A stretch of 64,000 bases of DNA from an uncultured delta proteobacterium (GCA_963848295.1 CAWKDB010000010.1:2848001-2912000), one strand, 5' to 3'; counted from the first letter of the stretch, positions 28,722 through 60,990 are shown. Made by a program: numbers and translations. The notes: a model not told the origin generated them from the letters alone.

Positions 28722-30215
28722 GTGGCGTATCGGTTCCTCGCGTGGGTTCTGCGAGTCATCACGCGCGTGTTCTTTCGCCAGGTCGAGGTCGCCGGGCTCG
28801 AGCACGTGCCGAGCGACGGCCCGGTGCTGTTCGCCGGCAATCATCCGAACTCGCTGATCGATCCGATCCTGATCATCACGACGTGCGGTCGCAAGGTTCA
28901 CTTTGCGGCGAAGGACACGCTGTTCAAGGGCCGGCTGATGCGCGCGGTGCTGCGCGGCCTGGGCGCGGTCCCGGTGGCGCGCAGGGACGACCATGGCGGC
29001 GCGGTCGACAACGACGCGGCGTTCACCGCGATGTTCGACGTGCTCGGCCAAGGCGGCGCGATCGGCATCTTCCCCGAGGGGCTGTCGCACGACGAGTCGC
29101 AGCTCGCGCGACTCAAGACCGGCGCCGCGCGACTCGCGATCGGCGGCGCGCAACGCACCGGCCGGCCGATCTCGATCGTCCCGTGCGGCCTGACGTTCAT
29201 CCATCCGAAGCGGTTTCGCAGCCGGGTGCTCGTGCAATACGGACCGCCGGTGATCGTCGATCGAACCGCACCGCCTTTCGGCGCTGCTGACGACCGGGTG
29301 CGCGCCCCGGTCGTCGAGCCCGGCGACGTGCGCCAGGTGACGGCGGAGCTCGACGGGGCGCTGCGCCGGCTCACGATCAACGCGCCCGATTGGGATACGG
29401 TGCGCGCGCTCGACGTCGTGCGCCGGCTCTATCAGCCGCAAGAGATCTCGATCGAGGATCGGGTCGAGCTCGCGCGCAGGTTCAACACGTATTACTCCGC
29501 GGTCGCCGGCGATCCGCGCGTGCAATTGCTGATGACCCGCGTGCGCGCCTACCAAGACGCGCTCGAGGACCTCGGCGTCACCGATCGCGAGCTCGCGCGC
29601 GACCTGTCGAAGGCCGAGGTGACGGCGCGCGTGATCCGCCACCTCGCGCTCGTCGCGTTCTGGCTGCCGCTGACCGCGCCCGGGGTGCCGTTTCATTTGC
29701 CTTCGCTCGCGTTCGCGCGACTCGCCGGATCGCGCCTGACTCCGCGCAAGGACGTGATCGCGACGACGAAGCTGATGATCGGTATGCTGATCGTGATCGT
29801 CGCGTACGGCGCCGCGATCGCGGTGCTCGGCTGGAAGCTCGGCTTGCCGTGGGCGTTGCTCGCGTCCCTCGTGCTGCCGCTGTCGGGCTGGGCGACGCTG
29901 CGCGTGCTCGACCGCCTCCGCCTCGCGCGCCGCGGCCTCGGCGTGCTGTTTCGGCGGTTGCGATTTCGCCGCGAGGTCCACGCGTTGCGCGCCGAGCGCG
30001 AGCGGCTCGTCGCCGACGTGATCGCGACGGTCAGCGCGGTCAGGCCCGCCGAGCTGCCGGCGATGTTCCCGGCCGATCATCCGGGTCGGGCCGATGGCCG
30101 GGGCTTGCCCGCGGCGGGCAGTGCCGCCGAAGCGCGGCGTGGGTCCATCGAGGAGTCGCGCGCGGCTCGCCGCAACGCCGATCTCGACAGCGAATACGAC
30201 AAGCACGAGTCATGA
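28722..30215 (+). CDS. PlsC-family acyltransferase with C-terminal membrane helices
   Basis: NHPNSLID, FAAK, FPEG motifs; carries two in-frame hairpin elements. Confidence 0.92.
   Translation: MAYRFLAWVLRVITRVFFRQVEVAGLEHVPSDGPVLFAGNHPNSLIDPILIITTCGRKVHFAAKDTLFKGRLMRAVLRGLGAVPVARRDDHGGAVDNDAAFTAMFDVLGQGGAIGIFPEGLSHDESQLARLKTGAARLAIGGAQRTGRPISIVPCGLTFIHPKRFRSRVLVQYGPPVIVDRTAPPFGAADDRVRAPVVEPGDVRQVTAELDGALRRLTINAPDWDTVRALDVVRRLYQPQEISIEDRVELARRFNTYYSAVAGDPRVQLLMTRVRAYQDALEDLGVTDRELARDLSKAEVTARVIRHLALVAFWLPLTAPGVPFHLPSLAFARLAGSRLTPRKDVIATTKLMIGMLIVIVAYGAAIAVLGWKLGLPWALLASLVLPLSGWATLRVLDRLRLARRGLGVLFRRLRFRREVHALRAERERLVADVIATVSAVRPAELPAMFPADHPGRADGRGLPAAGSAAEARRGSIEESRAARRNADLDSEYDKHES
29256..29317 (+). 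mobile_element. 57 bp twin-hairpin in-frame element (copy 1)
   Basis: GTCGA at 29256 and 29313; stems GCACCGCC/GGCGCTGC and GACGACCGGG/CCCGGTCGTC; 43/52 identity to the copy at 44744. Confidence 0.8.
30091..30152 (-). mobile_element. 57 bp twin-hairpin in-frame element (copy 2, antisense to host gene)
   Basis: Reverse complement CTCGA-TGGACCCACGCCGCGCTTCGGCGGCACTGCCCGCCGCGGGCAAGCCCCGGCC-ATCGG; same length and hairpin layout. Confidence 0.7.
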
Positions 30216-30865
30216 CCCGACCACTTGTCATCTTGCTCCACGGGCTCGCGCGCGGCCACGGCTCGATGGCAGGGCTCGGCGGCCACCTGCGCGCGCATGG
30301 CTTCGAGACGTGGAGCCGGACGTATCCGTCGCGCAAGCACTCGCTGTCGTATCTGTCGAGCGCCGTCGGTGATTGGATCGCCGAGGCCGCGGCCGGACGC
30401 CCGCTCTACGCGATCACGCATTCGATGGGCGGCCTGATCGTGCGGCACTTGCACGACCCGCGGCTGCACTGGCAACGCATCGTGATGCTCGCGCCGCCGA
30501 ATCGCGGCAGTCAGCTCGCCGCAGGCCTGTCGCGCAATCCGGTGTTCCGCTGGTACTTCGGTCCCGCTGGACTCGAGCTCGCCGAAGGCGCCGCGACGTG
30601 GCCGATGCCGCCCGCGCCGTTCGCCGTGATCGCAGGCACCCGCAGCCGGGCGTGGAACAACCCGACGAGCTGGACGGTCGGACGGCGGTTCCCCGTCGGG
30701 ATGCGCAACGACGGCACGGTCGCGGTCGACGAGACCAAGCTCGACGGCATGACCGACTTCGCCGAGGTCGACGCGACCCACACGTGGATCATGGACTCGC
30801 CGATCGTCCGCCAGCTCGCGGTCGAGTACCTGCGCGATGCGCGTTTCGCCGCGCTCCCGGCGTGA
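30212..30865 (+). CDS. Alpha/beta hydrolase (lipase/esterase)
   Basis: LLHGL, THSMGG, APPNRGS, NDGTV, HT. Confidence 0.9.
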   Translation: MTRPLVILLHGLARGHGSMAGLGGHLRAHGFETWSRTYPSRKHSLSYLSSAVGDWIAEAAAGRPLYAITHSMGGLIVRHLHDPRLHWQRIVMLAPPNRGSQLAAGLSRNPVFRWYFGPAGLELAEGAATWPMPPAPFAVIAGTRSRAWNNPTSWTVGRRFPVGMRNDGTVAVDETKLDGMTDFAEVDATHTWIMDSPIVRQLAVEYLRDARFAALPA

Positions 30866-30897
30866 CGATCTGATCGCGCTCGTGTTACGAGCTTGAA

Positions 30898-31524
30898 GTG
30901 TTCGGCCGGTTCCTGCCCCGAGAGACCAGCTTCTTCGATTTCTTCGAGCAGCATGCCGAGCTGACGATCGAAGGCGTTAAAGAGTTCCTGTCGATGGTGA
31001 CGACCGCGGCGAACATCCCGGCGAAGTGCCGCCGGATCTCGGACATCGAGCACGAGACCGACACGATCACCCACCGCTGCGTCGAAGCACTGCACAAGAC
31101 GTTCATCACCCCGATCGATCGCGACTCGATCCACCGCCTGATCACGAAGATGGACGACGTCATGGACTACGTCGAAGCCGCCGCCGAACGCATCGAGCTG
31201 TACGAGCTGACAACCATGACGAGCGACGTGCGCGACCTCGCCGACGTGCTCTATCGATCCACCCTGCAAGTCGAGCAGTGTGTGCGCGGGCTACGCACGC
31301 TCGGCGATCCGCACGCGACCTTGAAGTTGTGCATCGACATCAATCGGCTCGAGAATGAAGCCGATGCAATCCTTCGCCGCTCGGTCGCGCGGTTGTTCAA
31401 AGAGGACAACAACGTGATCCACATCATCAAGTGGAAAGAGATCTACGAGAATCTCGAGGCCGCGAGTGATCGCTGCGAAGACGTCGCGAACATCATCGAG
31501 GGCGTGATCCTCGAGCACGCATAA
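30898..31524 (+). CDS. DUF47 / Pit accessory (PhoU-like) protein
   Basis: IEHETD, TFITPIDR, LENEAD, D.CEDVANIIE; upstream of pit. Confidence 0.93.
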   Translation: MFGRFLPRETSFFDFFEQHAELTIEGVKEFLSMVTTAANIPAKCRRISDIEHETDTITHRCVEALHKTFITPIDRDSIHRLITKMDDVMDYVEAAAERIELYELTTMTSDVRDLADVLYRSTLQVEQCVRGLRTLGDPHATLKLCIDINRLENEADAILRRSVARLFKEDNNVIHIIKWKEIYENLEAASDRCEDVANIIEGVILEHA

Positions 31525-31527
31525 TCG

Positions 31528-32547
31528 ATGGACGTCGGCACCGTCGTCATCGCCACTATCGCCCTGGCGTTGGTGTTCGACATCATCAACGGCTTTCACG
31601 ACGCCGCGAACTCGATCGCCACGATCGTCTCGACCCGCGTGTTGTCGCCGCGCGCCGCGGTCGTGTGGGCAGCGGCGTTCAACTTCCTCGCGCTGTGGAT
31701 CTTCAAGCTGTCGGTCGCGAAGACGATCGCGAACATCGTGTTCGTCGATCCGAACGAACCGGGCTTCGTGTTCGTCGTCAGCTGCGGGTTGCTCGGCGCG
31801 ATCGCGTGGAATCTGCTGACGTGGTGGCTCGGCCTGCCGTCGTCGAGCTCGCACGCGCTGATCGGGGGGCTGTCCGGCGCTGGCATCGCGTTCCACGGCA
31901 TCGGCGTGCTCAACACCGACAAGCTTTATCCGACGCTAGGGTTCATCGTGCTCGCACCGATCATCGGCCTCGTGATCGGCATGGTGATGATGATCGCCGT
32001 GTCGTGGGCGTTCCGCCGCGCGCGACCTCGCACCGTCGACAAGACGTTCCGCCGCGCCCAACTGCTGTCGGCGGCGGCGTACTCGCTCGGCCATGGCGGC
32101 AACGACGCGCAAAAGACGATCGGGGTGATCGCGCTCGTGCTCGTGGCATCGCGACACCTCACGAAGACCGAGGTCGATGCCGGCGATGTGCCGAGTTGGA
32201 TCATCTTTGCGTCGTACGGCTGCATGGCGCTCGGCACCGCGGTCGGCGGCTGGCGGATCGTGAAGACGATGGGCATGGGCATCACGCCGCTCAAGCCGGT
32301 CGGCGGATTCTGCGCGGAGGTCGCGGGCGCGATCACGCTGTTCGGCGCCACGGCCCTGAAGATTCCGGTCTCGACGACGCACACGATCACCGGCGCGATC
32401 GTGGGGGTCGGCTCGGTTCAGAAGCTCAGAGGCATCCGATGGGGCCTGGCCACGCGCATCCTGTGGGCGTGGATCTTGACGATCCCGATGGCTGCGCTCG
32501 TCGGCGCCGCCACGCTGCTCGCCGCGCGCGCGTTTGGCGCGTACTGA
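31528..32547 (+). CDS. pit: Inorganic phosphate transporter (PiT family)
   Basis: NGFHDAAN, GLPSSSSHAL, HGGNDAQK, PVSTTH. Confidence 0.95.
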   Translation: MDVGTVVIATIALALVFDIINGFHDAANSIATIVSTRVLSPRAAVVWAAAFNFLALWIFKLSVAKTIANIVFVDPNEPGFVFVVSCGLLGAIAWNLLTWWLGLPSSSSHALIGGLSGAGIAFHGIGVLNTDKLYPTLGFIVLAPIIGLVIGMVMMIAVSWAFRRARPRTVDKTFRRAQLLSAAAYSLGHGGNDAQKTIGVIALVLVASRHLTKTEVDAGDVPSWIIFASYGCMALGTAVGGWRIVKTMGMGITPLKPVGGFCAEVAGAITLFGATALKIPVSTTHTITGAIVGVGSVQKLRGIRWGLATRILWAWILTIPMAALVGAATLLAARAFGAY

Positions 32548-32576
32548 TTGTCAGACCCTCGATCCAGATTCGGGCC

Positions 32577-33182
32577 GTGGCCAAGCTCTACTTCCGCTAC
32601 GGGACGATGGATTCGGCGAAGTCGATGAACCTGCTCGCGGTGGCGCACAACTACCGCAAGCAAGGCAAGCGTGTGGTGATGATGAAGCCTCGGCGCGACA
32701 CCCGGTTCGGCGCTGGCAAGATCTCGTCGCGCTCGGGCCTCGAAGCTGAAGCCGACGTCATGGTCGACGACGACACGGTGCTCGACCCGCGCGACTTCGC
32801 CGGGCTCGACTGCGTGCTCGTCGATGAAGCGCAGTTCCTGGCGCCGAGCCTGATCGAGGATCTGCGCCGGATCACGGTCGATCCGGGTGTGCCGGTGATC
32901 TGCTACGGGCTGCGCACCGACTTCCGCACGAAGCTGTTCCCGGGCGCGCAGCGGCTGATGGAGCTCGCGGACGGCATCGAAGAGGTCAAGGTCACTTGTC
33001 AGTACTGCCAGAAGAAGGCGATCTGCAACCTGCGATTCGTCAACGGCACGCCGACCGTTGTCGGCCCGCAGATCCACCTCGGCGCGGACGAGCACTACGC
33101 GCCCGTGTGCTGGGCGCACTACGACGAAGCGACCAAGCAGATCTCGGCCGAAGCGAGCGGCGCGGTCCTGCGCCCGAGCTGA
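32577..33182 (+). CDS. tdk: Thymidine kinase
   Basis: LYFRYGTMDSAKS, VDEAQFL, YGLRTDF, Zn-binding Cys; GTG start. Confidence 0.95.
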   Translation: MAKLYFRYGTMDSAKSMNLLAVAHNYRKQGKRVVMMKPRRDTRFGAGKISSRSGLEAEADVMVDDDTVLDPRDFAGLDCVLVDEAQFLAPSLIEDLRRITVDPGVPVICYGLRTDFRTKLFPGAQRLMELADGIEEVKVTCQYCQKKAICNLRFVNGTPTVVGPQIHLGADEHYAPVCWAHYDEATKQISAEASGAVLRPS

Positions 33183-33284
33183 GGGACGGTGTTCACTTTG
33201 ACAACCGCCGTGCTGGGCTGAGGCTTGTTGTCGCCCGCACTTAGCTAGTTAGCTAGCTAGGGACGGTGTTCACTTTGACAACCG
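33182..33284 (-). repeat. Direct repeat pair AGGGACGGTGTTCACTTTGACAACCG (locus C1, family in reverse orientation)
   Basis: Identical 26-mers at 33182 and 33259 (period 77). Confidence 0.9.
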
Positions 33285-33356
33285 GCGCGTGGCAGACGCT
33301 TGTCGCTTGGCTGGAACGCGCCACCGTACGACCGCCACCGTCACCCACGGTCGCGC

Positions 33357-33456
33357 AGCGCAAGTTGACAAAAGAGACAGCGTCCCCACCGAAGCGTCCC
33401 CACCGAAGCGCAAGTTGACAAAAGAGACAGCGTCCCCACCGAAGCGACAGCGTCCC
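33357..33456 (+). repeat. Direct repeat pair AGCGCAAGTTGACAAAAGAGACAGCGTCCCCACCGAAGCG plus partial units (locus C2)
   Basis: 40-mers at 33357 and 33407 (period 50) with extra GCGTCCCCACCGAA and GACAGCGTCCC subunits. Confidence 0.9.
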
Positions 33457-35357
33457 TAATTCAGATCTGCTCGGCGGGTTCGCCATTCGTTGAAGAGCGC
33501 GGGGAAGCGCGGATCGCGTTGCAGCGGCGCTAGGTCGGCGTCGGTCTCCATCTTTTCGGTGTGCTCGTATTCGTGCTCGATCGCGCGCGAGACTTGTTCG
33601 AGCGCCTTGTCGATCTGGCCAAGCGCCGCGTAGGCGCAAGCGGCCGAGTGATAGATGTACGGATTTTCGGGCCCGAAGCGCTGGCCGCCGGAGGCGAGAT
33701 CGGCGGCGAGCTTGTAGTCACCGATCGCGTGCGCGTGAATACATGCGTTGTTCCACGCCATGACGAGCGCGGTGCGCGCTTCACCGGCGTCTTTCGCCGG
33801 CTCGGGCAACGCGATCACGCGGCGCAAGATCTGCAGCGCTTGCGGGCGATCGATGCCGAAGCTCGAGTTGTAGAGATGTGGCACGAGCAGGACCTCGTTC
33901 GGTAGCTTGTCGAGGATCGCAGCGAGGTGCTGGGGAGCATGGCGCGCGACTTGGCTCGCGAGATCGGCGAGCTCTTCCATCGTCGTATCGCCGACCACGG
34001 CATCGTCGAGTAGCGAGAGCGCCGGGCCGACCTCGTCGGGCGCGTGCTCGGCGGCCTCGCCGATCACGAGCAACCGCACCGACGGCTTCGACGTGCGCGC
34101 GAGCGCGATCGCCTCTTCGACCCGCTCTTGGCGAATCAGCACGATCGCGAGGTAGCCGGCAGCATCACACGCCGGATCGAACGCACTCGCCCGGCGCAGC
34201 AACCGTTCGGCGATCGCCGCGGCGCTCGGATCGTCCGGATCGTGCTCGAGCGCGACCTCGACGAGCATGCCGGCGAGCTCGCGCTTGCTCCAGGCGCTCT
34301 GGCCGACCGCCCACGCGAGCGCCGGTTCTTCGCCTTGGCGACGAAACCGATCGGCGAACGGGTTGCCGGCGAGCACGAACGGGGCCTCGCCATCGCCGGA
34401 CGCATGTGACTTCGTGGCGTCGTCGACGGTATCGAATCGCGCCCACGCGATCGGAATGACGTCCGACAGGCGCGCGATAATCCACAGCAGGAAATGCACC
34501 TGGTCGGCTGACGTCGCTGGCACCGCGAAGCGCTCGACCCACATCAGCGACGAGCGATGGCGACGATCGTGGATCGCATCGGCCCGGGAGAACGGCTCGA
34601 ACTCGTCGGCGCGCTCGTCTTGATAGACCGAGAGCCACAGCGCGAAGAACGCGTTGACCACGGACTCTTCGCCGAGCAACGGTTCGCCAGACAGCTTCAG
34701 CGCGACGCCGAAGCTCTCCCAGTCGTAGTCATCGATGATCTCGGGATAGCGCTCGATCGGAAACGTCACGGTGTGCTCGAACGGCGGGGTGCCATTGCGC
34801 CAATGGCTCTCGAGCGCGACCGCTTCGACGATGTCGTCGTCTTCGTCGTCCTCGTCGTCTTCGTCGGCATCATCTTCGGTCGCCTCGGCGACCGTCGGCA
34901 CTTCGGGATCCGCGGCGTCGGGATCCTCGTACAGCACCATCTCTTCCCAGCCGGTGCCCGGGCCGGGTGCGTCGGCGGGGGCGATCGCGCGCGCTTGCGC
35001 GGCCGCGGCTTCGGCCGCTTCACCGGCGGTGAGCTCGAGCCACGCGACGCCGTCGATACCGGTCTCGACCTTGACGAGCCACACCCCGTCGAGCTCGAGC
35101 TCGGCGGCGGCTTGCTCGAGTGCCGCGCGTTGTTCGCCGAGCTCTCCCGCGGTCGGCGGCAACCACGGCGCGGCGTGCCACTGGCGCGGGGGCTCCGAGC
35201 CCGGATCGTCGACCTCGCTCGGCTCGGTCACGCTGGCGCTGGCGAGCAGCTGCCACAGCTGGCGTTGTTGCGCGGCGTCGAGCGGCCGCTTGCTGCGCGC
35301 GATCACGATGCCTCGCGCCAAGTCGCTGCGTCGCGGCTCGAGGCCGACGATCTCCAT
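33456..35357 (-). CDS. Hypothetical protein with acidic tract and C-terminal TPR ('TPR end-of-group'-like)
   Basis: 633 aa; Asp/Glu tract; C-terminal AACAYAALG..D.AL..V..AI...D.DL..L..DPRF. Confidence 0.8.
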   Translation of the reverse strand: MEIVGLEPRRSDLARGIVIARSKRPLDAAQQRQLWQLLASASVTEPSEVDDPGSEPPRQWHAAPWLPPTAGELGEQRAALEQAAAELELDGVWLVKVETGIDGVAWLELTAGEAAEAAAAQARAIAPADAPGPGTGWEEMVLYEDPDAADPEVPTVAEATEDDADEDDEDDEDDDIVEAVALESHWRNGTPPFEHTVTFPIERYPEIIDDYDWESFGVALKLSGEPLLGEESVVNAFFALWLSVYQDERADEFEPFSRADAIHDRRHRSSLMWVERFAVPATSADQVHFLLWIIARLSDVIPIAWARFDTVDDATKSHASGDGEAPFVLAGNPFADRFRRQGEEPALAWAVGQSAWSKRELAGMLVEVALEHDPDDPSAAAIAERLLRRASAFDPACDAAGYLAIVLIRQERVEEAIALARTSKPSVRLLVIGEAAEHAPDEVGPALSLLDDAVVGDTTMEELADLASQVARHAPQHLAAILDKLPNEVLLVPHLYNSSFGIDRPQALQILRRVIALPEPAKDAGEARTALVMAWNNACIHAHAIGDYKLAADLASGGQRFGPENPYIYHSAACAYAALGQIDKALEQVSRAIEHEYEHTEKMETDADLAPLQRDPRFPALFNEWRTRRADLN

Positions 35358-35397
35358 GCGTGCTACGAGCGTATCGCAAGCCGCGCGGGCCGGCAGC

Positions 35398-36804
35398 TCA
35401 GCACTCGATGATGTTGACCGCGAGCCCTCCGCGCGCGGTCTCCTTGTACTTGCTGCTCATGTCCGCGCCGGTCCGCCACATCGTCTTGATCACCTTGTCG
35501 AGCGACACCTTGTGCGTGCCGTCGCCTTGCAGCGCGAGCCGCGCCGCGTTGATCGCCTTGACCGCGCCCATCGCGTTGCGCTCGATGCAGGGTACCTGGA
35601 CGAGTCCGCCGATCGGATCGCAGGTCAACCCGAGGTTGTGCTCCATGCCGATCTCCGCGGCATTTTCGACCTGCGCCGGCGTGCCCCCCATCACCTCGGC
35701 GAGCGCGCCCGCCGCCATCGAGCATGCGACCCCGACCTCGCCCTGACAGCCGACCTCCGCGCCGCTGATCGACGCGTTCTTCTTGTACAACGCGCCGATC
35801 GCGCCGGCGGTGAGCAAGAACCGCAGCGTGCCTTCGTCGTCGGCGTTCGGCACGAACCGCCGGTAGTACGTGATCACGGCCGGGATGATGCCGGCGGCGC
35901 CGTTCGTGGGCGCGGTCACGACCCGGCCGCCCGCCGCGTTCTCTTCGTTGACCGCGAGCGCGAATAGATTCACCCAGTCCATGATCGTCAGCGGGTCGGC
36001 GGTGCCGTGATCGCTCTTGAGCTTGCGATAGAGCTGCGCGGCGCGACGCTTGACCTTCAGTCCGCCCGGCAAGATCCCTTCGCGTTCGCAACCGCGCTTC
36101 ACGCACGCATCCATCGCAGACCACAGGGCGAGCAGGCGGTGCCGGACCACAGCCTCGGGCCCGAGTCGAAGCGAGTCGGGCTCGCCGCGAGTCGGGACGA
36201 CCGCCTTCTCGTTCTCGAGCATCAACGTCGAGATCGCCATGCCGTGCTCGGTCGAATGACGGAGCAGCTCCTCGGCGGAGTTGAACGGATACGGCACCGA
36301 CAGCTGATCGGCGGGCACCGAGCCATCCGCCGGCGCCCCCGCGTGATCGACGACGAAACCGCCACCCACCGAATAGTAGATCCGCTCGACGATGATGCCA
36401 GCCACGCCGAATGCGGTGAACCGCATGCCGTTCGAGTGCAGCGGCAGCTTCTCGCGGCGATGAAACAGCAGCGCCTCCGGAACGAGCGTGACCTCGTGGC
36501 GGCCGAGTAGCTTCAACCGCCGGCTGGACTCGACCGCGGCGATGCGACGCTCGACCGCATCGATGTCCACGGTCGCCGGCTCGTCGCCCTCGAGGCCCAA
36601 GATGATCGCGCGATCGCTGCCGTGACCCTTGCCGGTGAAGCCGAGGCTGCCGAACAGCTCGACCTTCACGCTGGTCACCGCTTCGAGCTGCCCATCGGCG
36701 ACAAGCCGCTCGGCAAACCGCTTCGCGGCGCGCATCGGCCCGACCGTGTGCGAGCTCGATGGCCCGATGCCGATCTTGAAGATGTCGAAGACGGAGATGT
36801 GCAC
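35398..36804 (-). CDS. sdaA: L-serine ammonia-lyase (Fe-S, single chain)
   Basis: [47 protein letters not shown]. Confidence 0.97.
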
Positions 36805-36833
36805 GAACAGCGCCTCGATCGAGTGTAGCTCGT

Positions 36834-37760
36834 TTAGCGCGTGCGGCCGCGACGGGCGGCGGCGCGACGAGCCGCGCGAGCCGCGCGAGACCTGGCGACA
36901 CGCGCCTCGCGGTCGGCGCGGTCCTGCGCGCTACGGAGCTCGCGAGCGGTGGTGTCCTTCGCGCGATGGATCTCACGATCGGCGAGCTGCTTCGCGCGCT
37001 TGGCCTCGCGCGCCTTCTGCTCCTTCACACGCCTGGTCTCGCGCGCCGACGTGGCATCGAGCCCCAGCCGGACGGTCAGGCCATCGAGCATGGCTTGCAG
37101 ACCGAGCTCGAAGCGGTTGTTCGTGGCGAACGTCTCGCTGATCTCGAAGAACACCTCGGCAGGCTGACGCGACCCGATGAGCTCCGCGAGCTGCGGGTAC
37201 TCGCCCGTCGCGACCTGCGACTTCGCGAGGTCGTTCACGGCGCGCGCCTGGTCGAACGACGAGTGGTCCTCGACCGACCGCTGCACCGAGCCGAACACGT
37301 AGTCATCGACGAGCGTCAGCAACTGGATTTTGTCCGGCATCGACAGCGGCAGCTCGGCGACCGCGGACAGCGAATGTTCGATGTGGCGCAGTCCGTTCGG
37401 CCCGACGCGCGCACGGTCGAGCGATGCGATCGCCCAGGGGTGTGCGGTGAACGTGGCGTGCGTCGCGCGTGCGATGGTCTCGACGCCGGCGCGCCAACCG
37501 CGGGGCAGCGGCGTCGAGTGGCTGATGGCCTCGCCCATCAGCGCTTCATCGATGATCGTGAGCAGATCGTCCTTGGTACGGACGTAGTAGTAGAGCGTCA
37601 TCGTTCCCGCGCCGAGCTCGTCGGCGATCCGTCGCATCGACACCGCCTCGAACCCTTCGTGATCTGCGATCGCGACAGCTACTCGCGCGATCTGCTCGCG
37701 CGTGAACCGCGGCTTGCGAGACCCCGGCGGCGGCTCGGCCCAGATCGGGACGTTTGACAC
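36834..37760 (-). CDS. TetR family regulator with long basic C-terminal tail
   Basis: [31 protein letters not shown]; TetR_C-type domain; divergent from the ABC exporter. Confidence 0.92.
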
Positions 37761-37800
37761 GCCGTACAGTGTACTGCTAATGCTATTCGTATGACGTACG
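37754..37800. promoter_or_regulatory. Divergent promoter with probable TetR operators
   Basis: TTGACA 37754; palindromes CGTACAGTGTAC (37763) and CGTATGACGTACG (37788) in a 30 bp intergenic gap. Confidence 0.6.
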
Positions 37801-38825
37801 ATGATGACGTACAAACCACGAACAAGGGCGTTCGCGCCGAGAACCTCGGCAAGCGGTTCGGCGAGCTGTGGGCGCTGCGCGGGCTCGACCTCGACGTGCG
37901 CCCCGGCAAGGTGCTCGGCTTGCTCGGCCACAACGGCGCCGGCAAGACGACCGCGATCCGGATCCTCACGACGCTGACGACGCCGACCGAAGGCCGCGCG
38001 ATCGTCGCCGGTCACGACGTCATGATCGAGGCGTCGCACGTGCGCGAACGCATCGGGGTCGCCGGTCAGGCCGCGACGGTCGACGGCCTGCTCACCGCGC
38101 GAGCGAACCTCGAGATGGTCGCGCGGCTCTATCACCTGTCGCGCGCGCGCGCCCGCGAGCGGGCGGGCGAACTGCTCGAGCGGTTCGAGCTCGCCGCCGA
38201 CGGGGACCGCCTCGTCAAGACGTACTCGGGCGGCATGCGGCGCCGGCTCGATCTCGCCGCGAGCCTCGTCGCCGCGCCCCCCGTGTTGTTCCTCGACGAG
38301 CCAACGACCGGCCTCGATCCCCGCAGCCGTAGCGAGCTGTGGCAGCTCCTCACCGAGCGTGTGCGCGGCGGTACGACGCTCGTGCTCACGACGCAATACC
38401 TCGAAGAAGCCGATCGCCTCGCCGACGAGATCGTCGTGCTCGACCACGGCACCGTCGCCGCACGCGGGACGCCGATGCAGTTGAAGACGACGATCGGTGG
38501 GGACCGAGTGACCGTCGCCGTCGCCGCGGCCGACGATGCGCCTCGCGCTCGCGTCGCTCTGTTGCCGTTCGCCGAGGGCGAGCCGGTGATCGAAGCGGCT
38601 CCGGACGCCCACGCCAACGCCCAAGGCATCGCGATCGGCACGACCGCACCTAGCCGGGTCGTGCTGCGCGGCAAGCCGGGGTTGCGGCTGGTCGAGGTCG
38701 TGCGCGCTCTCGACGCCGCCGGGATCGACGCGATCGATGTCGCCCGCCGCGAGACGACGCTCGATGACGTGTTCCTCGCGATCACCGATCGCAGCCGCAA
38801 GCCCGCCTCGGAGGTCGTGGCGTGA
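37791..38825 (+). CDS. ABC exporter ATPase (DrrA family)
   Basis: GHNGAGKTT, YSGGMRRRLD, LDEPTTGLDP. Confidence 0.95.
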   Translation: MTYDDDVQTTNKGVRAENLGKRFGELWALRGLDLDVRPGKVLGLLGHNGAGKTTAIRILTTLTTPTEGRAIVAGHDVMIEASHVRERIGVAGQAATVDGLLTARANLEMVARLYHLSRARARERAGELLERFELAADGDRLVKTYSGGMRRRLDLAASLVAAPPVLFLDEPTTGLDPRSRSELWQLLTERVRGGTTLVLTTQYLEEADRLADEIVVLDHGTVAARGTPMQLKTTIGGDRVTVAVAAADDAPRARVALLPFAEGEPVIEAAPDAHANAQGIAIGTTAPSRVVLRGKPGLRLVEVVRALDAAGIDAIDVARRETTLDDVFLAITDRSRKPASEVVA

Positions 38826-41465: not shown

Positions 41466-41496
41466 GCGCCGCAGACTCTATCAGGTATCGTTCGCC

Positions 41497-42096: not shown

Positions 42097-42122
42097 ACGC
42101 GGCTTCGGCTACAGTCCGCGCC

Positions 42123-43118: not shown

Positions 43119-43120
43119 CG

Positions 43121-43612: not shown

Positions 43613-43666
43613 GACGGCGATGCTCGCGCTCCCACCGATTCGGCGCAACTGCGGTAAGGTCGCGAC

Positions 43667-44689: not shown

Positions 44690-45303
44690 GTCTCGGCGAG
44701 CGAGCCGTTGTCCTCGACGTAGAAGTCGCCGCACCGCGCGCACTCGACGGTCGGGGCTTGCCCCCGGCCGTCAACAGCGCCGAATGGCGATGCGGTTCGA
44801 TCGACCGATGCGGGCAGCGTCTCGCCGCACTTGCACGCCCAGCCGATGCGCGTGGCCGGCGCACCGACGACGAGCGCGTGCGGCCCGACATCGCGGGTGA
44901 CCACCGCTCCCGCCCCGATCATCGCGTACTCGCCGATCGTGACGCCGCAGACGATCGTGGCGTTCGCGCCGACCGTCGCGCCGCGACACACGAGCGTCCG
45001 CGCGTACTCGGTCTTGCGCGGGACGTGGGCGCGCGGATGCTTGACGTTCGTGAACACGCACGACGGGCCGAGGAACACGTCGTCCTCGAGCGTCACGCCG
45101 TCGTAGATCGAGACGTGGTTCTGGATCCGGCAGCCGTGCCCGATCCGGACCACGCCGACGAAGCACCCTTGGCCGATCGAGCAGCGGTCGCCGATCCAGG
45201 CGCCTTGCATGACGTGAACGAACTGCCAGATCCGCGTGTCCTTGCCGACGTGCGTGCCCGGGCCGTCGACGATCGCCGAAGCGTGAATCTGTGCGTCTGC
45301 CAC
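44680..45303 (-). CDS. Hexapeptide-repeat N-acetyltransferase (WbpD/WlbB-like)
   Basis: IQNHVSIYDGVTLEDDVFLGPSCVFTN, GANATIVCG, C-terminal CKCG..L..C..CG. Confidence 0.92.
   Translation of the reverse strand: MADAQIHASAIVDGPGTHVGKDTRIWQFVHVMQGAWIGDRCSIGQGCFVGVVRIGHGCRIQNHVSIYDGVTLEDDVFLGPSCVFTNVKHPRAHVPRKTEYARTLVCRGATVGANATIVCGVTIGEYAMIGAGAVVTRDVGPHALVVGAPATRIGWACKCGETLPASVDRTASPFGAVDGRGQAPTVECARCGDFYVEDNGSLAETQR
44744..44805 (-). mobile_element. 57 bp twin-hairpin in-frame element (copy 3)
   Basis: Reverse complement GTCGA-TCGAACCGCATCGCCATTCGGCGCTGTTGACGGCCGGGGGCAAGCCCCGACC-GTCGA; lies between the two Cys pairs. Confidence 0.8.
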
Positions 45304-45326
45304 TTTGCGCTAGGATGCGCTAGCCC

Positions 45327-52858: not shown

Positions 52859-54943
52859 CTATTCGTCGGCCGGCAGCGCGAAGCTCGCGAAGAAATTCTT
52901 GACCTCGGCGGCGGGCACTTTTTGTCGCGCCTCTTCGCCGAGATCGCGCACGTCGAGCAGCTCGTCGGGGACCTCGAGCAAGAACCGCGAAGGCGTGCGC
53001 GGCATCGTGCGGCCGCGATTCACGCGAGTGCACGCGCGGGTCAGGTACAGCTTGCGCTGCGCGCGCGTGATCCCGACGTAGCACAGCCGGCGCTCTTCGC
53101 TGATGTCGGTCGCGTGGTCCGCATCGACGGCCGGGACTTGCTCCCGGCCCGCAGCGCCGCCGGATGGCGGTGCGGTCCTGATGCCGACGTCGGTCACCTG
53201 CGGCTGCAACGTCCGCGCGTGCGGCAGCAGCTCCTCTTCGAGCCCGATCATGAAGCACACCGGAAACTCGAGGCCCTTCGCACCGTGCAGCGTGCACAGC
53301 ACGACCTTGTCACCGTCGTCGTGCTTCTCGTCCTTGCTGTCGAGCGAGAGATGGCGCAGGTACTCGGCGAGATCGGTCCGGCCTTTGGCGGCGAACTTGC
53401 CGAGCGACCCGAGCAACCCTTCGACGTTGTCGATCCGCCGCTGCGCCGCGGCCATGCTGCCCGATGCCGCCCGCAGGTCTTCGTAGAGGCCGATGTCCTT
53501 GACCAGCGAGCGCGTCACCGCGACGACATCGATCCCGGCTTCGAACCCGGCGCGTACGCGCTCGACCGCCGCGATGAAGCCATCGATCCCGGCGCGCGCG
53601 GCGCCGTGGACCTCGGTGTTGCGCAGCGCATCCCACAGCGTCGCGTGATTGGCCTGCGCCACCGCCGCGAGCTTGTCGACCGTGGTCGTGCCGATGCCGC
53701 GCGCCGGATAGTTCAACACCCGGCGCAGCGCGAGCTCGTCCCTCGGGTTGATCGCGACCCGCAGGTACGCGATCAGGTCCTTGACTTCCTTGCGCTCGAA
53801 GAACTGCTGGCCGCCGTACATCACGTACGGCACGTCGAGCTGGCGCAGCTCGTCCTCGACCACCTTCGCCTGGACGTTCGAGCGATAGAGGATCGCGATG
53901 TCGGACCAGCGCCGGCCGTCTTGTTGGAGCTGGCGGATCTCGCGCGCGACCCACTTCGCTTCGTCGTCGGCGGTCGGCGCGACGGCGTGGGTGATCGCGT
54001 CGCCGTCCGGCAGCTGCGACCACAGCGTCTTGCCGTGGCGGTTCTTGTTGTTCGCGATCACCGCGTTCGCCGCTGCGAGGATCGACTTGGTCGAGCGATA
54101 GTTTTGCTCGAGCTTGACGATCTTGGCGCCGGGAAACAGCTCGCCGAACTTCAAGATGTTCGTCGGGTCTGCGCCGCGCCAGCTGTAGATCGATTGATCG
54201 TCGTCGCCGACCACGCACAGGTTGCCGTGATCGCGCACGAGGTGCTGGACCATCCGCAGCTGCGCGCGGTTCGTGTCTTGAAACTCGTCGACCATCACGT
54301 ACTCGAACCGCTCGGCCCAGGCGTTGCCGGTGGCGGGATCGCGCTCCCACAGCCGGACCGGTTCCACGATCAGGTCGTCGAAGTCGAACGCCGCACACGC
54401 GCGCAGGCCCTCCTGATACTTCGGATAGATCTGCTGGGTCATCGCATCGTAGTCGTCGAGTGGGTTGCCCTCGAAGTCATCGGGCGCGATGAACGCGTTC
54501 TTCGCGAGCGAGATCCGGGTCAAGATCGCCTTCGCGTCGTAGCGGCGATCGCCGTCGCGGACGACCCGCATCGCTTCGCGCACCGCGCCGAGCTGATCGG
54601 AGCCGTCGTAGATCACGAAGCCGCGCGGCATGCCGAGCGCCTTGCGTTCGATCCGCAGCACTTGCAGGCCGAGCGCGTGAAACGTCCCGATCGTGAGCTC
54701 GCGCGCGACCGCCTTGTCGCCGAGCAGCGCCGAGACTCGCTCGCGCATCTCCTCGGCCGCTTTGTTCGTGAACGTGACCGCGCAGATCCGCTGCGGCGGC
54801 ACGCCCTGCGCCAGCAAGTGCGCGATCCGGAACGTGATCACGCGGGTCTTGCCCGAGCCTGCGCCGGCGAGCACCAGCACCGGGCCTCGGCCGTGGCTCG
54901 CCGCATCGCGCTGCGGCGGATTGAGCTTGCCGAGATCGACCAC
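52859..54943 (-). CDS. UvrD/PcrA/Rep family DNA helicase
   Basis: AGAGSGKT, TFTNKAA, VDEFQDTN, GDDDQSIY, LEQNYRS, HGAKGLEF, EERRLCYVGITRA. Confidence 0.97.
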   Translation of the reverse strand: MVDLGKLNPPQRDAASHGRGPVLVLAGAGSGKTRVITFRIAHLLAQGVPPQRICAVTFTNKAAEEMRERVSALLGDKAVARELTIGTFHALGLQVLRIERKALGMPRGFVIYDGSDQLGAVREAMRVVRDGDRRYDAKAILTRISLAKNAFIAPDDFEGNPLDDYDAMTQQIYPKYQEGLRACAAFDFDDLIVEPVRLWERDPATGNAWAERFEYVMVDEFQDTNRAQLRMVQHLVRDHGNLCVVGDDDQSIYSWRGADPTNILKFGELFPGAKIVKLEQNYRSTKSILAAANAVIANNKNRHGKTLWSQLPDGDAITHAVAPTADDEAKWVAREIRQLQQDGRRWSDIAILYRSNVQAKVVEDELRQLDVPYVMYGGQQFFERKEVKDLIAYLRVAINPRDELALRRVLNYPARGIGTTTVDKLAAVAQANHATLWDALRNTEVHGAARAGIDGFIAAVERVRAGFEAGIDVVAVTRSLVKDIGLYEDLRAASGSMAAAQRRIDNVEGLLGSLGKFAAKGRTDLAEYLRHLSLDSKDEKHDDGDKVVLCTLHGAKGLEFPVCFMIGLEEELLPHARTLQPQVTDVGIRTAPPSGGAAGREQVPAVDADHATDISEERRLCYVGITRAQRKLYLTRACTRVNRGRTMPRTPSRFLLEVPDELLDVRDLGEEARQKVPAAEVKNFFASFALPADE
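53124..53188 (-). mobile_element. 60 bp twin-hairpin in-frame element (copy 4)
   Basis: Encodes GIRTAPPSGGAAGREQVPAV just before motif VI; stems CCGCC/GGCGG and GGCCGGGA/TCCCGGCC; flanks GTCGG/GTCGA. Confidence 0.75.
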
Positions 54944-55016
54944 GGAGCGAGCACGCTACGGATCCGCGACCGCGCCGTCAACGCGAATGCGCGCCCACGC
55001 GCTACGATGTCGTGGC

Positions 55017-57897: not shown

Positions 57898-57909
57898 CGG
57901 CCCAACAGG

Positions 57910-57929
57910 GACCTTTTGCAATAAAGGTC
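57910..57929. terminator. Hairpin between convergent genes
   Basis: GACCTTT-TGCAAT-AAAGGTC; weak stem. Confidence 0.35.
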
Positions 57930-57972
57930 GATGCGTCCTTGCTTCGCCCGACACGTGGTTGATCGATCCGGC

Positions 57973-58281: not shown

Positions 58282-58430
58282 GCTCGCAAGCGTACGATGC
58301 ACGGATGCGCGACGACCTGGCAGTCGCGTGCAGCGGCTGGCAATGTGCCCGCCAAAGTCGGCGGCCGCGCCGCGATCGATCGGCCCCGGGGTTCAGAAAC
58401 CCGAGACTGGATTCGTTCGCCATAACGGCA

Positions 58431-59696: not shown

Positions 59697-59737
59697 GCGG
59701 TCGTTGTACGATCCCGAGCGAGCTGATACAAGGTGCC

Positions 59738-60337
59738 GTGGCGCGACGGACGAGGATCGAGCGCAACACGACCGAGACTCAGATCGCGATCGCGCTCGAT
59801 CTGGACGGCTCTGGCCAGCGCTCGATCGCGACGCCACTCCCGTTCCTCAGCCACATGCTCGAGGCCTTCGCGCGCCACGGCGTGTTCGACGTCGAGATCG
59901 CGGCGACCGGCGACATCGAGATCGACGGCCATCACACCGTCGAGGACATCGGGCTCGTGCTCGGCAACGCGTTCGAGCAAGCGCTCGGCGACCGCGCCGG
60001 CATCGTCCGCTACGGCTGGGCGACGTTGCCGATGGACGAAGTGCTCGTCACCGTCGCGGTCGATTTTTGCGGCCGGCCCGCGTTCGTGTGGAAGGTCGCA
60101 GGGCTCGAAGGCAAGTGGATCGGAGACTTCGACTGCGAGCTCGTCAAGGAGTTCTTCGCCGCGTTCGCGACGCGCGCCCAGTGCAACCTCCACGTCGTGG
60201 TCCACTACGGCGGCAACGCGCACCACATGATCGAGTGCATGTTCAAAGCGTTCGCACGTGCCGCCGATGCCGCGACGCGAATCGACCCTCGGCTCGGCGG
60301 CGCGGTGCCCTCGACCAAGGGCACGCTGACGACGTGA
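59738..60337 (+). CDS. hisB: Imidazoleglycerol-phosphate dehydratase
   Basis: FLSHML, IDGHHTVED, PMDE, NAHHMIE, PSTKG. Confidence 0.97.
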   Translation: MARRTRIERNTTETQIAIALDLDGSGQRSIATPLPFLSHMLEAFARHGVFDVEIAATGDIEIDGHHTVEDIGLVLGNAFEQALGDRAGIVRYGWATLPMDEVLVTVAVDFCGRPAFVWKVAGLEGKWIGDFDCELVKEFFAAFATRAQCNLHVVVHYGGNAHHMIECMFKAFARAADAATRIDPRLGGAVPSTKGTLTT

Positions 60338-60990
60338 CGTCGACCGACCCGGTGCAACGCTCCGCGTCGCGGCACGCATCGGCGAAGCCGACGCCGTCGA
60401 TCGCGATCGTCGACGTGTGCTCGGGCAACTTGCGCTCGGTCGCGCGCGCGATCGCCCGGGTCGGTGGCACGCCGGTCGTCACCCGCGATCCTGATGTTGT
60501 CCGGTCGGCGGACAAAGTGATCGTGCCCGGCCAAGGCGCGTTCGACGTATTCATGCGCGGGCTGACCGAGCGAGGCCTCGGCGAGGTGTTGCGCGAAGCG
60601 ATCGCGAGCGGGCGGCCGTATCTCGGGATCTGCCTCGGCCTGCAAGTGCTGTTCGATCACGGCGACGAGGGCGACTGCGCAGGCTTGGGGTTCTTCGCGG
60701 GCCGCGTGACGAAGCTGGCACCGAGCGACCGCCGGCTCAAGGTCCCGCACATGGGGTGGAACCAAGTCCGCCAGCGCCGAGCGGTCGCCGGGATCGCCGA
60801 CGGCGACTACGTCTACTTCGTGCACTCTTATCGCGCGGTGCCCGTCGATCCATCGCTCGTCGCGCTCGAGGCCGACCATGGCGAGTCGTTCTGTGCCGCG
60901 ATCGCGAAGGACAACGTGCTCGCCGTGCAGTTTCATCCCGAGAAGAGCCAAGCGGTCGGCTTGCGGCTGCTCGAGAGCTTCGTCGCATGA
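60334..60990 (+). CDS. hisH: Imidazole glycerol phosphate synthase, glutaminase subunit
   Basis: GNLRSV, PGQG, GICLG, PHMGWN, YFVHSY, QFHPEKS. Confidence 0.96.
   Translation: MTSTDPVQRSASRHASAKPTPSIAIVDVCSGNLRSVARAIARVGGTPVVTRDPDVVRSADKVIVPGQGAFDVFMRGLTERGLGEVLREAIASGRPYLGICLGLQVLFDHGDEGDCAGLGFFAGRVTKLAPSDRRLKVPHMGWNQVRQRRAVAGIADGDYVYFVHSYRAVPVDPSLVALEADHGESFCAAIAKDNVLAVQFHPEKSQAVGLRLLESFVA
60339..60400 (+). mobile_element. 57 bp twin-hairpin in-frame element (divergent copy 5)
   Basis: GTCGA at 60339 and 60396; stems GCAACGC/GCGTCGC and GCATCGGC/GCCGACGC; removal gives MTSIAIVD. Confidence 0.65.

Follow-up and report, generated by a model that had tools for sequence, protein, structure and literature searches.

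A 57-nucleotide two-hairpin repeat at TCGA sites of a Kofleriaceae genome, probably a non-autonomous transposon translated within its host genes

The window analysed here, a 64-kb stretch of DNA, contains short related hairpin segments inside unrelated conserved genes, raising the question of what these segments are, how they came to lie in coding sequence and whether they are translated with their hosts. The window belongs to a 7.8-Mb Kofleriaceae genome (Myxococcota), an 85 % complete metagenome assembly of a free-living soil myxobacterium. An earlier note on this DNA had listed five in-frame copies of such an element, four of which proved genuine and far above chance (Table 1; nhmmer E-values of 5.6e-17 to 1.7e-9), with covariance scores of 51.8–81.3 bits compared to 22.4 bits for the next best match in the window. 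The nhmmer matches spanned 29253–29319 (+), 30091–30153 (-), 44742–44806 (-) and 53122–53178 (-), and translation of the inserts gave the peptides originally quoted. The proposed period of 57 or 60 nt with TCGA-like ends was borne out as exactly 57 nt from TCGA to TCGA in copies 1, 2 and 3; in copy 2 the outer end has degenerated and reads CCGA on the + strand. The left end of copy 4 is non-canonical and its span from TCGG to TCGA is 60 nt, yet in the closest relative precisely 57 nt are missing at this place. On recounting, copies 1 and 3 were identical at 44 of 53 internal positions, a small correction to the 43 of 52 given at first reading.

Table 1. Coordinates of the element copies, their host genes and the hisH insert, counted from the first nucleotide of the window.
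Feature	Coordinates	Strand	Evidence
Host gene 1: acyltransferase, 497 aa, two copies	28722..30215	+	Pfam PF01553, E = 6.1e-20
Copy 1, sense, read as VDRTAPPFGAADDRVRAPVV; TCGA at 29257-29260 and 29314-29317	29257..29317	+	nhmmer E = 9.7e-15; 78.1 bits
Copy 2, antisense to the acyltransferase gene, read as DGRGLPAAGSAAEARRGSI	30091..30151	-	nhmmer E = 1.7e-9; 51.8 bits
Host gene 2: hexapeptide-repeat acetyltransferase, 207 aa	44680..45303	-	Pfam PF00132, E = 5.5e-24
Copy 3, sense, read as VDRTASPFGAVDGRGQAPTV	44744..44804	-	nhmmer E = 5.6e-17; 81.3 bits
Host gene 3: UvrD/PcrA-type helicase, 694 aa	52859..54943	-	PF00580, E = 4.1e-81; PF13361, E = 2.3e-72; PcrA 1pjr, E = 2.2e-148
Copy 4, sense, read as GIRTAPPSGGAAGREQVPAV	53124..53187	-	nhmmer E = 2.9e-12; 70.9 bits
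63-nt (21-aa) lineage-specific insert directly following the hisH start codon	60338..60400	+	Orthologue comparison
hisH	60334-60990

The four window sites were compared with 17–19 orthologues each, none of which carried the insert. Copy 1 is absent from 19/19 acyltransferase orthologues and copy 2 from all 17 that reach its site; the copy 3 segment occurs in 0/19 acetyltransferase orthologues, and copy 4 is missing from each of the 18 UvrD orthologues that cover the position, confirming that empty alleles exist. The closest relative, G100, which is approximately 90 % identical to this genome, has copy 1 at the same site and lacks the other three, showing a 48-nt gap with an intact ATCGAA at the site of copy 2 and gaps of exactly 57 nt at the sites of copies 3 and 4. 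Copy 3 sits between the two cysteine pairs of the C-terminal CxCG...CxxCG motif of the acetyltransferase and is predicted to form a coil, with a modelled pLDDT below 50 at residues 171–178. Copy 4 immediately precedes helicase motif VI (EERRLCYVGITRA), where PcrA (1pjr) has 3 residues and the host protein has 32.

The fifth segment, in hisH, had been taken for a divergent copy. It is a real insertion, absent from G100 and from the 18/18 orthologues listed, with one TCGA at 60340 and a second 57 nt further on, at 60397, and by hand count it matches the family consensus at 37 of 57 positions. Its membership of the family is only putative: the covariance model scored it at 17.8 bits (E = 0.064), the level of background matches, the HMM gave no match, and no other copy of it was found in the genome.

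A genome-wide nhmmer search (E ≤ 0.01) recovered 183 units, which were grouped into 157 loci. Each 57-nt unit consists of TCGA, a 7-nt spacer, a first hairpin of 8 bp with a 4-nt loop, a second hairpin of 9–11 bp with a 5-nt loop, and a closing TCGA. The consensus stems are G/C throughout, and compensatory changes at 10 of the 19 stem pairs bear out the two covarying stem-loops described earlier and extend them to the whole family. Double changes occupied 36 cells of the stems compared to 14.3 in shuffles, a value reached by 0/500 shuffles, and 88.8 % of the stem cells were paired compared to 28–62 % when the partners were slid. The mean DNA folding energy of the units was approximately -17 kcal/mol, as against -11.6 kcal/mol for shuffles. 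No terminal inverted repeats beyond TCGA were seen in the consensus, in which the left end reads TCGATCGAACC and the reverse complement of the right end TCGACGGCCGG, and no Rfam family matches the element. Most loci (146 of the 157) are single-copy; arrays of as many as five tandem units also occur inside genes, and the only ArgS gene found in the genome holds five.

The position of the loci was determined relative to gene calls from a crude codon-usage gene finder (6377 genes, 86.6 % coding), which placed 116 loci inside genes, 8 partly inside and 33 between genes. The genic loci lie in 107 host genes, 88 of which pass a stricter filter, and Pfam domains (E ≤ 1e-5) were detected in 38 of 43 host proteins tested, including UvrD, an Era-like GTPase, SbcD, an acyl-CoA dehydrogenase, a PKS, SNF2, two Lhr helicases, CinA, Ser/Thr kinases and ArgS. 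Many host proteins are DNA-repair or helicase proteins and sense copies outnumber antisense copies by 72:44 (P = 0.012, or 0.04 allowing for stop codons), both of which would fit a non-mobile origin in which a 19-residue protein module was selected, or a motif was spread by recombination or gene conversion. However, copies are found in either orientation and are read in four frames, giving unrelated peptides, 33 loci are intergenic, the covariation is that of nucleic-acid hairpins and the insertions are evenly spread along the host proteins. This origin is disfavoured and appears highly improbable; a repeat that is non-coding by origin accords better with the sequences, its Gly/Pro/Ala-rich loop being likely transcribed and translated with the host genes.

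The codon phases of the genic loci were 91:23:2, indistinguishable from those of TCGA within genes (79.4 : 18.1 : 2.5 %; chi-square P = 0.79), which in this genome is mostly read as NTC|GAN. The in-frame pattern of the genic loci therefore follows from a TCGA target that falls in matching codon phases of GC-rich genes. The reading frame is indeed kept in genic loci, as had been claimed, but no special selection is needed to explain it. The unit is also poor in stop codons since it is only 19 codons long and GC-rich, so that in combination with the phase of TCGA an insertion usually adds a loop. Measured against the available targets, the depletion of genic loci is only about three-fold. Insertions bearing a stop appear to have been purged from genes: from the stop frequencies of intergenic copies, approximately 13.6 % of genic insertions should carry a stop, giving about 16 expected cases, and only 2 of the 41 non-genic loci look like an interrupted in-frame ORF (binomial P = 6e-6).

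Comparison with relatives gave filled and empty versions of many sites; element counts in relatives are limited by the number of candidates scored, 36–150 per genome. In G100, 53 loci were found, and the 39 with an orthologous region in the present genome comprise 27 sites that are empty here, 6 shared copies and 6 partly deleted remnants. The gap is exactly 57 nt at 19 of the 27 empty sites. Clean pairs have two TCGA 57 nt apart when filled and one when empty. Only 11 of the 27 empty sites retain TCGA, in central position, compared to 4.6 expected (P = 0.0034), and copies 2 and 4 of the window have non-canonical junctions. This enrichment, the clean pairs and the phase match all support TCGA as the target, as first suggested. 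At the GTCGAC of a PVDNDAAF site, two species each carry a 57-nt TCGA-flanked copy, in sense orientation in G006 and antisense in G018, while five empty orthologues among those listed have a single (G/A)TCGA(C/T). Element positions in shared orthologous copies are identical at 230 of 256, compared to 88–92 % for the whole loci, indicating that they diverge at the rate of their flanks, which also speaks against the protein-module and gene-conversion origin. Array lengths differ between this genome and G100, with two loci holding 1 unit in G100 and 4 in G000, and although the two genomes are about 90 % identical their copy sets are lineage-specific. Of 90 genus mates, 30 were found to carry the family; none of the 56 genomes from 24 other genera of the order did.

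The remnants bear on whether the element reaches the protein at all. Two hairpins as stable as these could mark a tiny intron-like or processed segment that is removed from the transcript, leaving the proteins unchanged. Such removal would tolerate stops and any length within genes, yet stop-bearing interruptions are rare and the genic remnants differ by multiples of three, with gaps of 39, 15 and 36 nt at the G100 loci L202, L235 and L244 and of 48 nt at copy 2. Together with the lack of any matching Rfam family this makes removal from the transcript very improbable.

Taken together, the 57-nt two-hairpin units are very probably a non-autonomous transposon that inserts at TCGA by means of an enzyme encoded elsewhere, and are likely translated as a loop of 19 residues. 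From the filled and empty pairs we infer transposition as the process, with TCGA, or its central CG, duplicated on insertion; the duplicated length may lie anywhere from CG to TCGA, since the outer T varies independently at the two ends of the unit. The hairpins would be the part recognised for mobilisation. The enzyme would act in trans, insertion at a TCGA mostly in the NTC|GAN phase would usually add a loop and leave the gene unbroken, copies whose frame contains a stop would be purged, and the surviving copies would drift and shrink by in-frame deletions.

Two types of enzyme could account for such insertions. IS630/IS5-type elements duplicate their target at TA or CTAG, and the element might similarly be a MITE-like derivative of a DDE-type IS that makes a staggered cut at the palindromic TCGA and duplicates 2–4 bp, its parent IS being lost or lying in the unassembled 15 % of the genome. 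The single TCGA of empty sites and the pair in filled ones, the palindromic target and the occurrence of both orientations at the same site (G006 and G018) are consistent with this mechanism, and the flanking TCGAs vary more at their left T and right A than at the bases between, a pattern predicted by duplication of CG alone in a T-CG-A context. The consensus however lacks terminal inverted repeats beyond TCGA, and no longer relative with the same ends, that is an autonomous IS, was found in this genome, so that a DDE-type parent is unlikely.

The second candidate is an HUH transposase of the Y1, IS200/RAYT type, which would move a REP/REPIN- or PATE-like element as single-stranded DNA. It would insert the element 3' of TCGA, the second TCGA being the element's own right-end cleavage site and not a target duplication. 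This proposal concerns the enzyme and is compatible with the transposon reading. It would account for the two different subterminal hairpins, the lack of terminal inverted repeats and the specific tetranucleotide at both junctions, and nine Y1 transposase matches above the Pfam cut-off were present in the genome. Published REPs likewise have stems of 8–9 bp and loops of 4–5 nt and lie inside repair genes, their CGTC class being described without a dedicated transposase (PMC3733652). Against it, 0/9 Y1 genes in the 85 %-complete assembly are flanked by the element, the best score within 1.5 kb being 15.5 bits compared to 50–87 for true copies, and the Y1 genes form an IS200-like repeat of their own with unrelated AT-rich ends. 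Nor do the Y1 counts of relatives follow their element counts (2 in G100, 3 in G046 and 4 in G060, compared to 34 and 37 in the element-free G044 and G099), and on contig C10 the element showed no orientation bias with replication (approximately 33 +/35 - left of the GC-skew minimum and 22 +/24 - right of it, arrays uncollapsed). Mobilisation by the Y1 enzymes of this genome therefore appears rather doubtful. Solo half-elements, or pairs split around a gene, were also not found in this genome, extending the earlier remark that no mobilising enzyme was visible from the window to the genome.

A bolder version of the transposon reading, to be held only tentatively, is that the element is recently or currently active, has coding DNA as its main niche with copies in more than 100 genes, and is moved by an enzyme that has so far had no known connection with such elements, as no partner of the RAYT or IS type is visible. 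If true, it would continually supply host proteins with new loops and with segments of variable length. To our knowledge, in-frame selfish repeats have so far been regarded chiefly as a peculiarity of Rickettsia and a handful of REP-rich genomes, while here a large free-living soil myxobacterium carries one in approximately 107 genes. The clear target, clean filled and empty pairs and lineage-specific copy sets make the insertion dynamics measurable, including the rate at which selfish DNA makes new protein loops, the tolerated fraction of gene insertions and decay by drift and in-frame deletion. Target phase and a length of 3n provide a simple rule by which an element can look 'frame-aware' without sensing the frame. 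The family poses a defined search problem, that of the enzyme moving a 57-nt two-hairpin element into TCGA, and explains unexpected 19-residue loops and tandem repeats in proteins annotated from Kofleriaceae metagenome-assembled genomes (MAGs).

Several known families share features with the element. Mycobacterial interspersed repetitive units (MIRUs) lie between the genes of operons. The 57-nt family resembles MIRU-VNTRs in its GC-rich units of 50-odd nt, tandem arrays and copy numbers that differ between relatives, but is mostly inside genes and mostly single-copy. PATEs, which derive from IS200/IS605, and REPINs are non-autonomous and share a pair of subterminal hairpins, the absence of inverted termini and a specific short sequence where they insert. 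The 57-nt element has all these features, but this genome yielded neither an IS nor a RAYT with matching ends that could be its parent, and no replication-strand bias was seen on contig C10. Of the traits of MITEs it shows a probable target-site duplication and lacks terminal inverted repeats and a related autonomous IS in this genome.

Closer parallels are found among repeats known from coding sequence. The GTAG- and CGTC-tagged REPs (Di Nocera et al. 2013, PMC3733652) form hairpin pairs that encode 20–30 aa within ORFs, in hosts such as UvrD/Rep helicases, excinuclease subunits and tRNA synthetases, although most REPs surveyed there are intergenic. The 57-nt element has similar GC-rich hairpins (stems of 8 and 9–11 bp), no dedicated transposase was found for it, which the CGTC class lacks too, and it lies in UvrD-type and tRNA-synthetase genes. 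It differs in that three quarters of its loci are genic, and in its lack of a GTAG or CGTC head tag, CGTC occurring only on the 3' side as the last two stem bases of hairpin 2 plus TC. Its consensus also lacks A/T pairs at stem positions 1 and 2 and the 3-nt CCA tail, both described for the CGTC class (PMC3733652), and its two hairpins differ in sequence and keep a fixed order, whereas REP dimers consist of one REP repeated head to head. No myxobacterium is named in PMC3733652 (0 occurrences of 'Myxococc' or 'Haliangium'). Rickettsia palindromic elements (RPEs; Ogata et al. 2000, summarised in PMC10969869 and PMC2229807) are small non-autonomous hairpin repeats found in frame in unrelated genes of AT-rich, reduced genomes of obligate intracellular alphaproteobacteria; they measure 100–150 bp, fold into a single long stem-loop and end in inverted repeats, and about 19 of 44 RPE-1 copies lie in ORFs (PMC2229807). 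The 57-nt element is likewise a small non-autonomous hairpin repeat that is both intergenic and in frame in unrelated conserved genes, adds a peptide, has no known transposase and counts repair and translation proteins among its hosts. Unlike RPEs it is 57 nt long, folds into two separate hairpins of G and C only, lacks inverted termini and has TCGA as a defined target; it is also predominantly genic (116/157 loci), forms arrays of up to 5 units and occupies a free-living host of approximately 8 Mb. The element is RPE- and intragenic-REP-like, a known kind of repeat in a new variant.

The four main segments lie where the earlier note had placed them in the window (see table below) and belong to a family of two-hairpin elements with a 57-nt period. 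A profile search of the whole assembly of this Kofleriaceae genome (G000; 7.78 Mb, 68 % G+C) recovered copies 1-4 with E values of 5.6e-17 to 1.7e-9, and they scored 51.8-81.3 bits with a covariance model, compared to 22.4 bits for the next best match in the window. That match, at 11097-11145 on the forward strand (E = 0.008), begins with a TCGA-like sequence and includes a stem resembling that of hairpin 2 but lacks hairpin 1; it may be a decayed remnant or due to chance. Copies 1 and 3, previously singled out for their likeness, are identical at 44 of 53 internal positions. Copies also exist genome-wide: two nhmmer rounds on the assembly gave 183 units at E <= 0.01, 120 of them at E <= 1e-8, which form 157 loci; 146 of these hold one unit, and the other 11 hold tandem arrays in which 2-5 units recur at intervals of exactly 57 nt. 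The consensus unit is GTCGA TCGAACC GCGCCGCC ATTC GGCGGCGC TGC CGGCCGGGG GCAAG CCCCGGCCG TCGA. A truncated copy containing only the left half through hairpin 1 (L049:198-267, C10:3347513-3347582 on the contig of the window) shares the GNAT gene C10:3347316-3347816 with a full copy.

Copies of the element in the window and the tandem array in the arginyl-tRNA synthetase gene of the same genome
Feature	Position	Strand	Basis or content
Copy 1	TCGA at 29257 to TCGA at 29314-29317	+	Sequence inspection, profile and covariance model
Copy 2	30091-30151	-	Sequence inspection, profile and covariance model
Copy 3	44744-44804	-	Sequence inspection, profile and covariance model
Copy 4	53124-53187	-	Sequence inspection, profile and covariance model
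argS host locus (L292)	G000 C11:700343-702295		Array C11:700843-701133, 5 x 57-nt units (95 aa), frame stays open

The compensatory changes described for stem 2 were found as covariation in the two hairpins across 24 aligned copies, in which 10 of the 19 stem pairs were changed on both sides. Doubly changed cells numbered 36 in these copies compared to 14.3 in shuffles, with none of 500 shuffles reaching the observed value, and stem pairing was 88.8 % compared to 28-62 % when the partners were slid by 1-3 columns. The hairpins thus belong to the nucleic acid itself. Genic and intergenic copies showed no difference in hairpin stability (P = 0.58), and a search of the element against Rfam gave no family match, only two sub-threshold chance matches.

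Empty alleles were found among orthologues for all four window copies. In the acyltransferase copy 1 is absent from 19 of 19 orthologues and copy 2 from all 17 that reach the site, while the copy 3 segment occurs in none of 19 orthologues of the hexapeptide-repeat acetyltransferase. The UvrD orthologues covering the site of copy 4 (17 genus mates and one from another family, the closest relatives all being uncultured MAGs) read TDV-x-DADHATD in 18 of 18 cases, and the window protein has 19-20 residues more. One row each in the UvrD and acyltransferase alignments comes from the unpublished genome G010, and the conclusions are independent of it. The closest relative, G100, with about 90 % DNA identity, has copy 1 at the identical site and lacks the other three, with gaps of exactly 57 nt at copies 3 and 4 and of 48 nt at copy 2, where it reads ATCGAA. 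In the reverse comparison of the 53 best-scoring G100 loci, 14 had no orthologous region in the G000 assembly, 27 were empty in G000 with gaps that ranged from 53 to 66 nt and measured exactly 57 nt in 19 cases, 6 were shared and 6 were partly deleted remnants in G000 with gaps of 15-39 nt. At two loci a tandem array has one unit in G100 and four in G000. Copies present in both genomes match at 230 of 256 positions (90 %), as do their surroundings, and have therefore undergone simple drift after insertion. On these alignments the segments are insertions and not ancestral stretches. All genomes compared are of MAG quality.

Orthologues of two host proteins also carry inserts of other kinds. Three UvrD orthologues (L009, L010 and L012) have their own inserts of 5-6 residues exactly where copy 4 sits, and this UvrD loop therefore accepts insertions repeatedly. 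About 12 genus-mate UvrD proteins contain an acidic, proline-rich segment of 20-50 residues after about residue 444 (P0003 numbering), which is missing from G000 and its nearest clade. In two genus-mate acetyltransferases (L165 and L172) the loop between the Cys pairs, where copy 3 sits, has unrelated inserts of 7 and about 17 residues.

The proposal that TCGA is the target gained support from the empty sites, from enrichment and from matching codon phases. Filled sites are bounded by TCGA at both ends, at a distance of 57 nt, and a single TCGA is present at empty sites, as at loci L201, L203, L205, L219, L231, L234 and L239. TCGA was central in 11 of 27 empty sites compared to 4.6 expected (P = 0.0034) and TCG in 21 of 27 compared to 14.7 expected (P = 0.012); some targets have mutated at 10-20 % divergence. 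The clearest case is a GTCGAC in the acyltransferase gene, encoding V-D of PVDNDAAF, which is occupied by a sense copy in genome G006 and by an antisense copy in G018, both 57 nt long and flanked by TCGA. The site is empty, with a single (G/A)TCGA(C/T), in G000, in three others and in G002, which is very close to G006. The outer TCGA bases are less conserved than the inner bases, with the outer T changed to G independently at the two ends (7, 5 and 2 cases), so that the duplicated part may be CG alone within a T-CG-A context.

Gene context was assigned with a purpose-written codon-usage gene finder that called 6377 genes covering 86.6 % of the assembly. These home-made calls place 116 of the 157 loci within genes, 8 across a gene end and 33 between genes. 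The genic loci fall in 107 host genes, 88 of which passed a stricter gene filter, and are spread evenly along the host proteins. A Pfam domain at E <= 1e-5 was detected in 38 of 43 host proteins tested, a set made up of the three hosts from the window, those belonging to the 39 genic loci that scored highest elsewhere, and ArgS, added for its array. The supported hosts include UvrD, an Era-type GTPase, SbcD, acyl-CoA dehydrogenase, polyketide synthase, an SNF2 helicase, two Lhr helicases, CinA, several Ser/Thr kinases, a sigma-70 factor and arginyl-tRNA synthetase. In the latter the five tandem units (GDHTAPPFGGADRRAQVAA x5) are read through between profile positions 82 and 94 of the catalytic domain; no other tRNA-synt_1d locus was found in the assembly, which is 85 % complete, and a second argS is possible.

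Sense copies are read with the codon boundaries GTC/GAT/CGA in 62 cases, TCG/ATC in 9 and the third frame in 1, and antisense copies with the same codon boundaries in 29 cases, TCG/ACG in 14 and the third frame in 1. The 91,695 TCGA occurrences in G000 genes have the phases NTC/GAN (79.4 %), TCG/ANN (18.1 %) and NNT/CGA (2.5 %), and the 91:23:2 distribution of the 116 genic loci fits these proportions (chi-square P = 0.79). The part of the earlier note that described insertion into genes with the frame kept was upheld, while the frame pattern itself follows the phase of TCGA and its unevenness needs no frame sensing: an insert of 57 nt, being a multiple of three, preserves the frame at any TCGA, and codon usage sets the common phase. 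Genes contain 90 % of TCGA sites compared to 74 % of element loci (P = 7e-9), a depletion of genic insertions of only about three-fold in odds. Genic copies are sense rather than antisense in a ratio of 72:44 (P = 0.012 against 1:1; P = 0.04 once the stop codons possible in each element frame were allowed for), which leaves a residual sense bias. A stricter ORF-span test recovered 64 of the 116 genic and 1 of the 41 non-genic loci in G000. In G100 it classed 17 of 50 loci as genic (13 sense f1, 3 antisense r3 and 1 antisense r1), which replicates the gene bias only roughly.

The element would be transcribed and translated with its host gene as an extra loop, which we infer from stop codons and gap lengths. 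Stops occur in 6-24 % of intergenic units across the six frames, from which about 13.6 % of random genic insertions are expected to bear a stop. An ORF with an in-frame interruption is suggested at only 2 of the 41 non-genic loci (2 of 118, binomial P = 6e-6). At these two, C2:994876-994940 and C2:1099965-1100026, alone among the non-genic loci, coding signal continues past the element without a change of frame or strand, and a stop-bearing copy may have disrupted a gene at each. The gap at copy 2 relative to G100 (48 nt) and those of the remnants L202 (39 nt), L235 (15 nt) and L244 (36 nt) are multiples of three; the alignments of L215, L228 and L243 were too ambiguous for gap phase. Reading of the element by ribosomes would account for both the scarcity of stops and these gaps, whereas its excision from the RNA would not. 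Gly, Pro and Ala are abundant in the peptides encoded by both main frames. The acetyltransferase insert is modelled as coil (mean pLDDT of the model 78.5), with pLDDT below 50 at residues 171-178, and falls between the Cys pairs of the C-terminal motif. The UvrD insert is directly N-terminal to helicase motif VI, where there are 32 residues compared to 3 in PcrA; the UvrD model (mean pLDDT 66.7, below 50 over residues 568-676), in which residues 587-607 are predicted coil, is too poor for the insert. Among sequencing runs, three of soil DNA from one study and none of RNA were listed for the sequence; their contigs that align to window positions 28001-48000 were short, low-depth pieces with no 57-nt joint at any copy.

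A further segment in hisH had been taken for a divergent copy. The gene, whose start overlaps the hisB stop, contains a 63-nt insert after the start codon with TCGA at 60340 and 60397, and this insert is absent from the 18 of 18 orthologues shown and from G100, which all begin (M)IAIVDVC. By this comparison it is a real, young in-frame insertion. Its membership in the family is tentative: 37 of 57 positions agree with the family consensus by hand count, but its model score is at background, the HMM misses it and the genome has no second copy.

The covariance-model scan suggested for relatives found the family in 30 of the other 90 genus members and in none of 56 genomes from 24 other genera of the order. 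Counting only scored candidates, the copy-rich genomes are G100 with at least 58 (58 of 58), G050 with at least 49, G046 with at least 40 and G060 with at least 34, alongside G000 itself, and most genomes of the genus, about 60, yielded no copy. Together with the G000/G100 comparison these uneven counts indicate that the family probably spread in independent, recent bursts. The element was not found in viral contigs, where the one pattern match scored 12.7 bits with the model, a chance value.

No mobilising enzyme had been visible in the window, and this was borne out genome-wide. None of the nine Y1_Tnp (HUH) genes in G000 is flanked by an element, Y1 and element counts are unrelated across 91 genomes, and the AT-rich ends of the Y1 genes, which form their own IS200-like repeat of about 80-88 % identity, are unrelated to the element, so these transposases were rejected as partners. 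The IS200-like family itself (loci L021-L029, for example C2:329920-330669 and C10:3657361-3658119) comprises about eight Y1 genes that share this identity over about 780 nt and have conserved ends, and it occurs in nearly all genomes of the genus (87 of 90), with as many as 37 matches in one genome. Half-element HMMs gave no sign of an autonomous parent in G000: the 32 solo matches to the left half and the 7 to the right half all had E >= 0.38, and none paired up within 6 kb. Since the element has no inverted termini, an HUH-type single-strand mechanism is conceivable but rather doubtful, and movement by a DDE-type mechanism with a 2-4-bp duplication was judged unlikely. Element orientation showed no replication-strand bias. 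The cumulative GC skew of the 4.9-Mb contig C10 has its minimum at about 2.90 Mb, and the window (2.848-2.912 Mb) is therefore probably at or near the replication origin.

Both the observation and the interpretation in the earlier note stand, and its remark that no description was known from myxobacteria agrees with full-text searches of the main body of papers, in which none was found for Myxococcota or Kofleriaceae. The family is notable for the share of copies inside genes, for a defined TCGA target that accounts for the frame pattern and for clean evidence of recent lineage-specific spread. Rickettsia palindromic elements (RPEs) are described as 100-150 bp long with one long stem-loop, with 19 ORF insertions of RPE-1 (PMC10969869, PMC2229807), and the GTAG/CGTC-tagged REPs as mostly intergenic, with intragenic dimers that encode 20-30 aa, often in repair genes and tRNA synthetases, and a CGTC class without a transposase (PMC3733652). 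A guanylate kinase that carries an RPE has reportedly been compared with and without its insert (cited in PMC2229807). The present family differs from the RPEs in having no long palindrome, and from the tagged REPs in lacking the GTAG/CGTC head tag, an A/T start of the stem and a RAYT, but works like both as an in-frame palindromic repeat.
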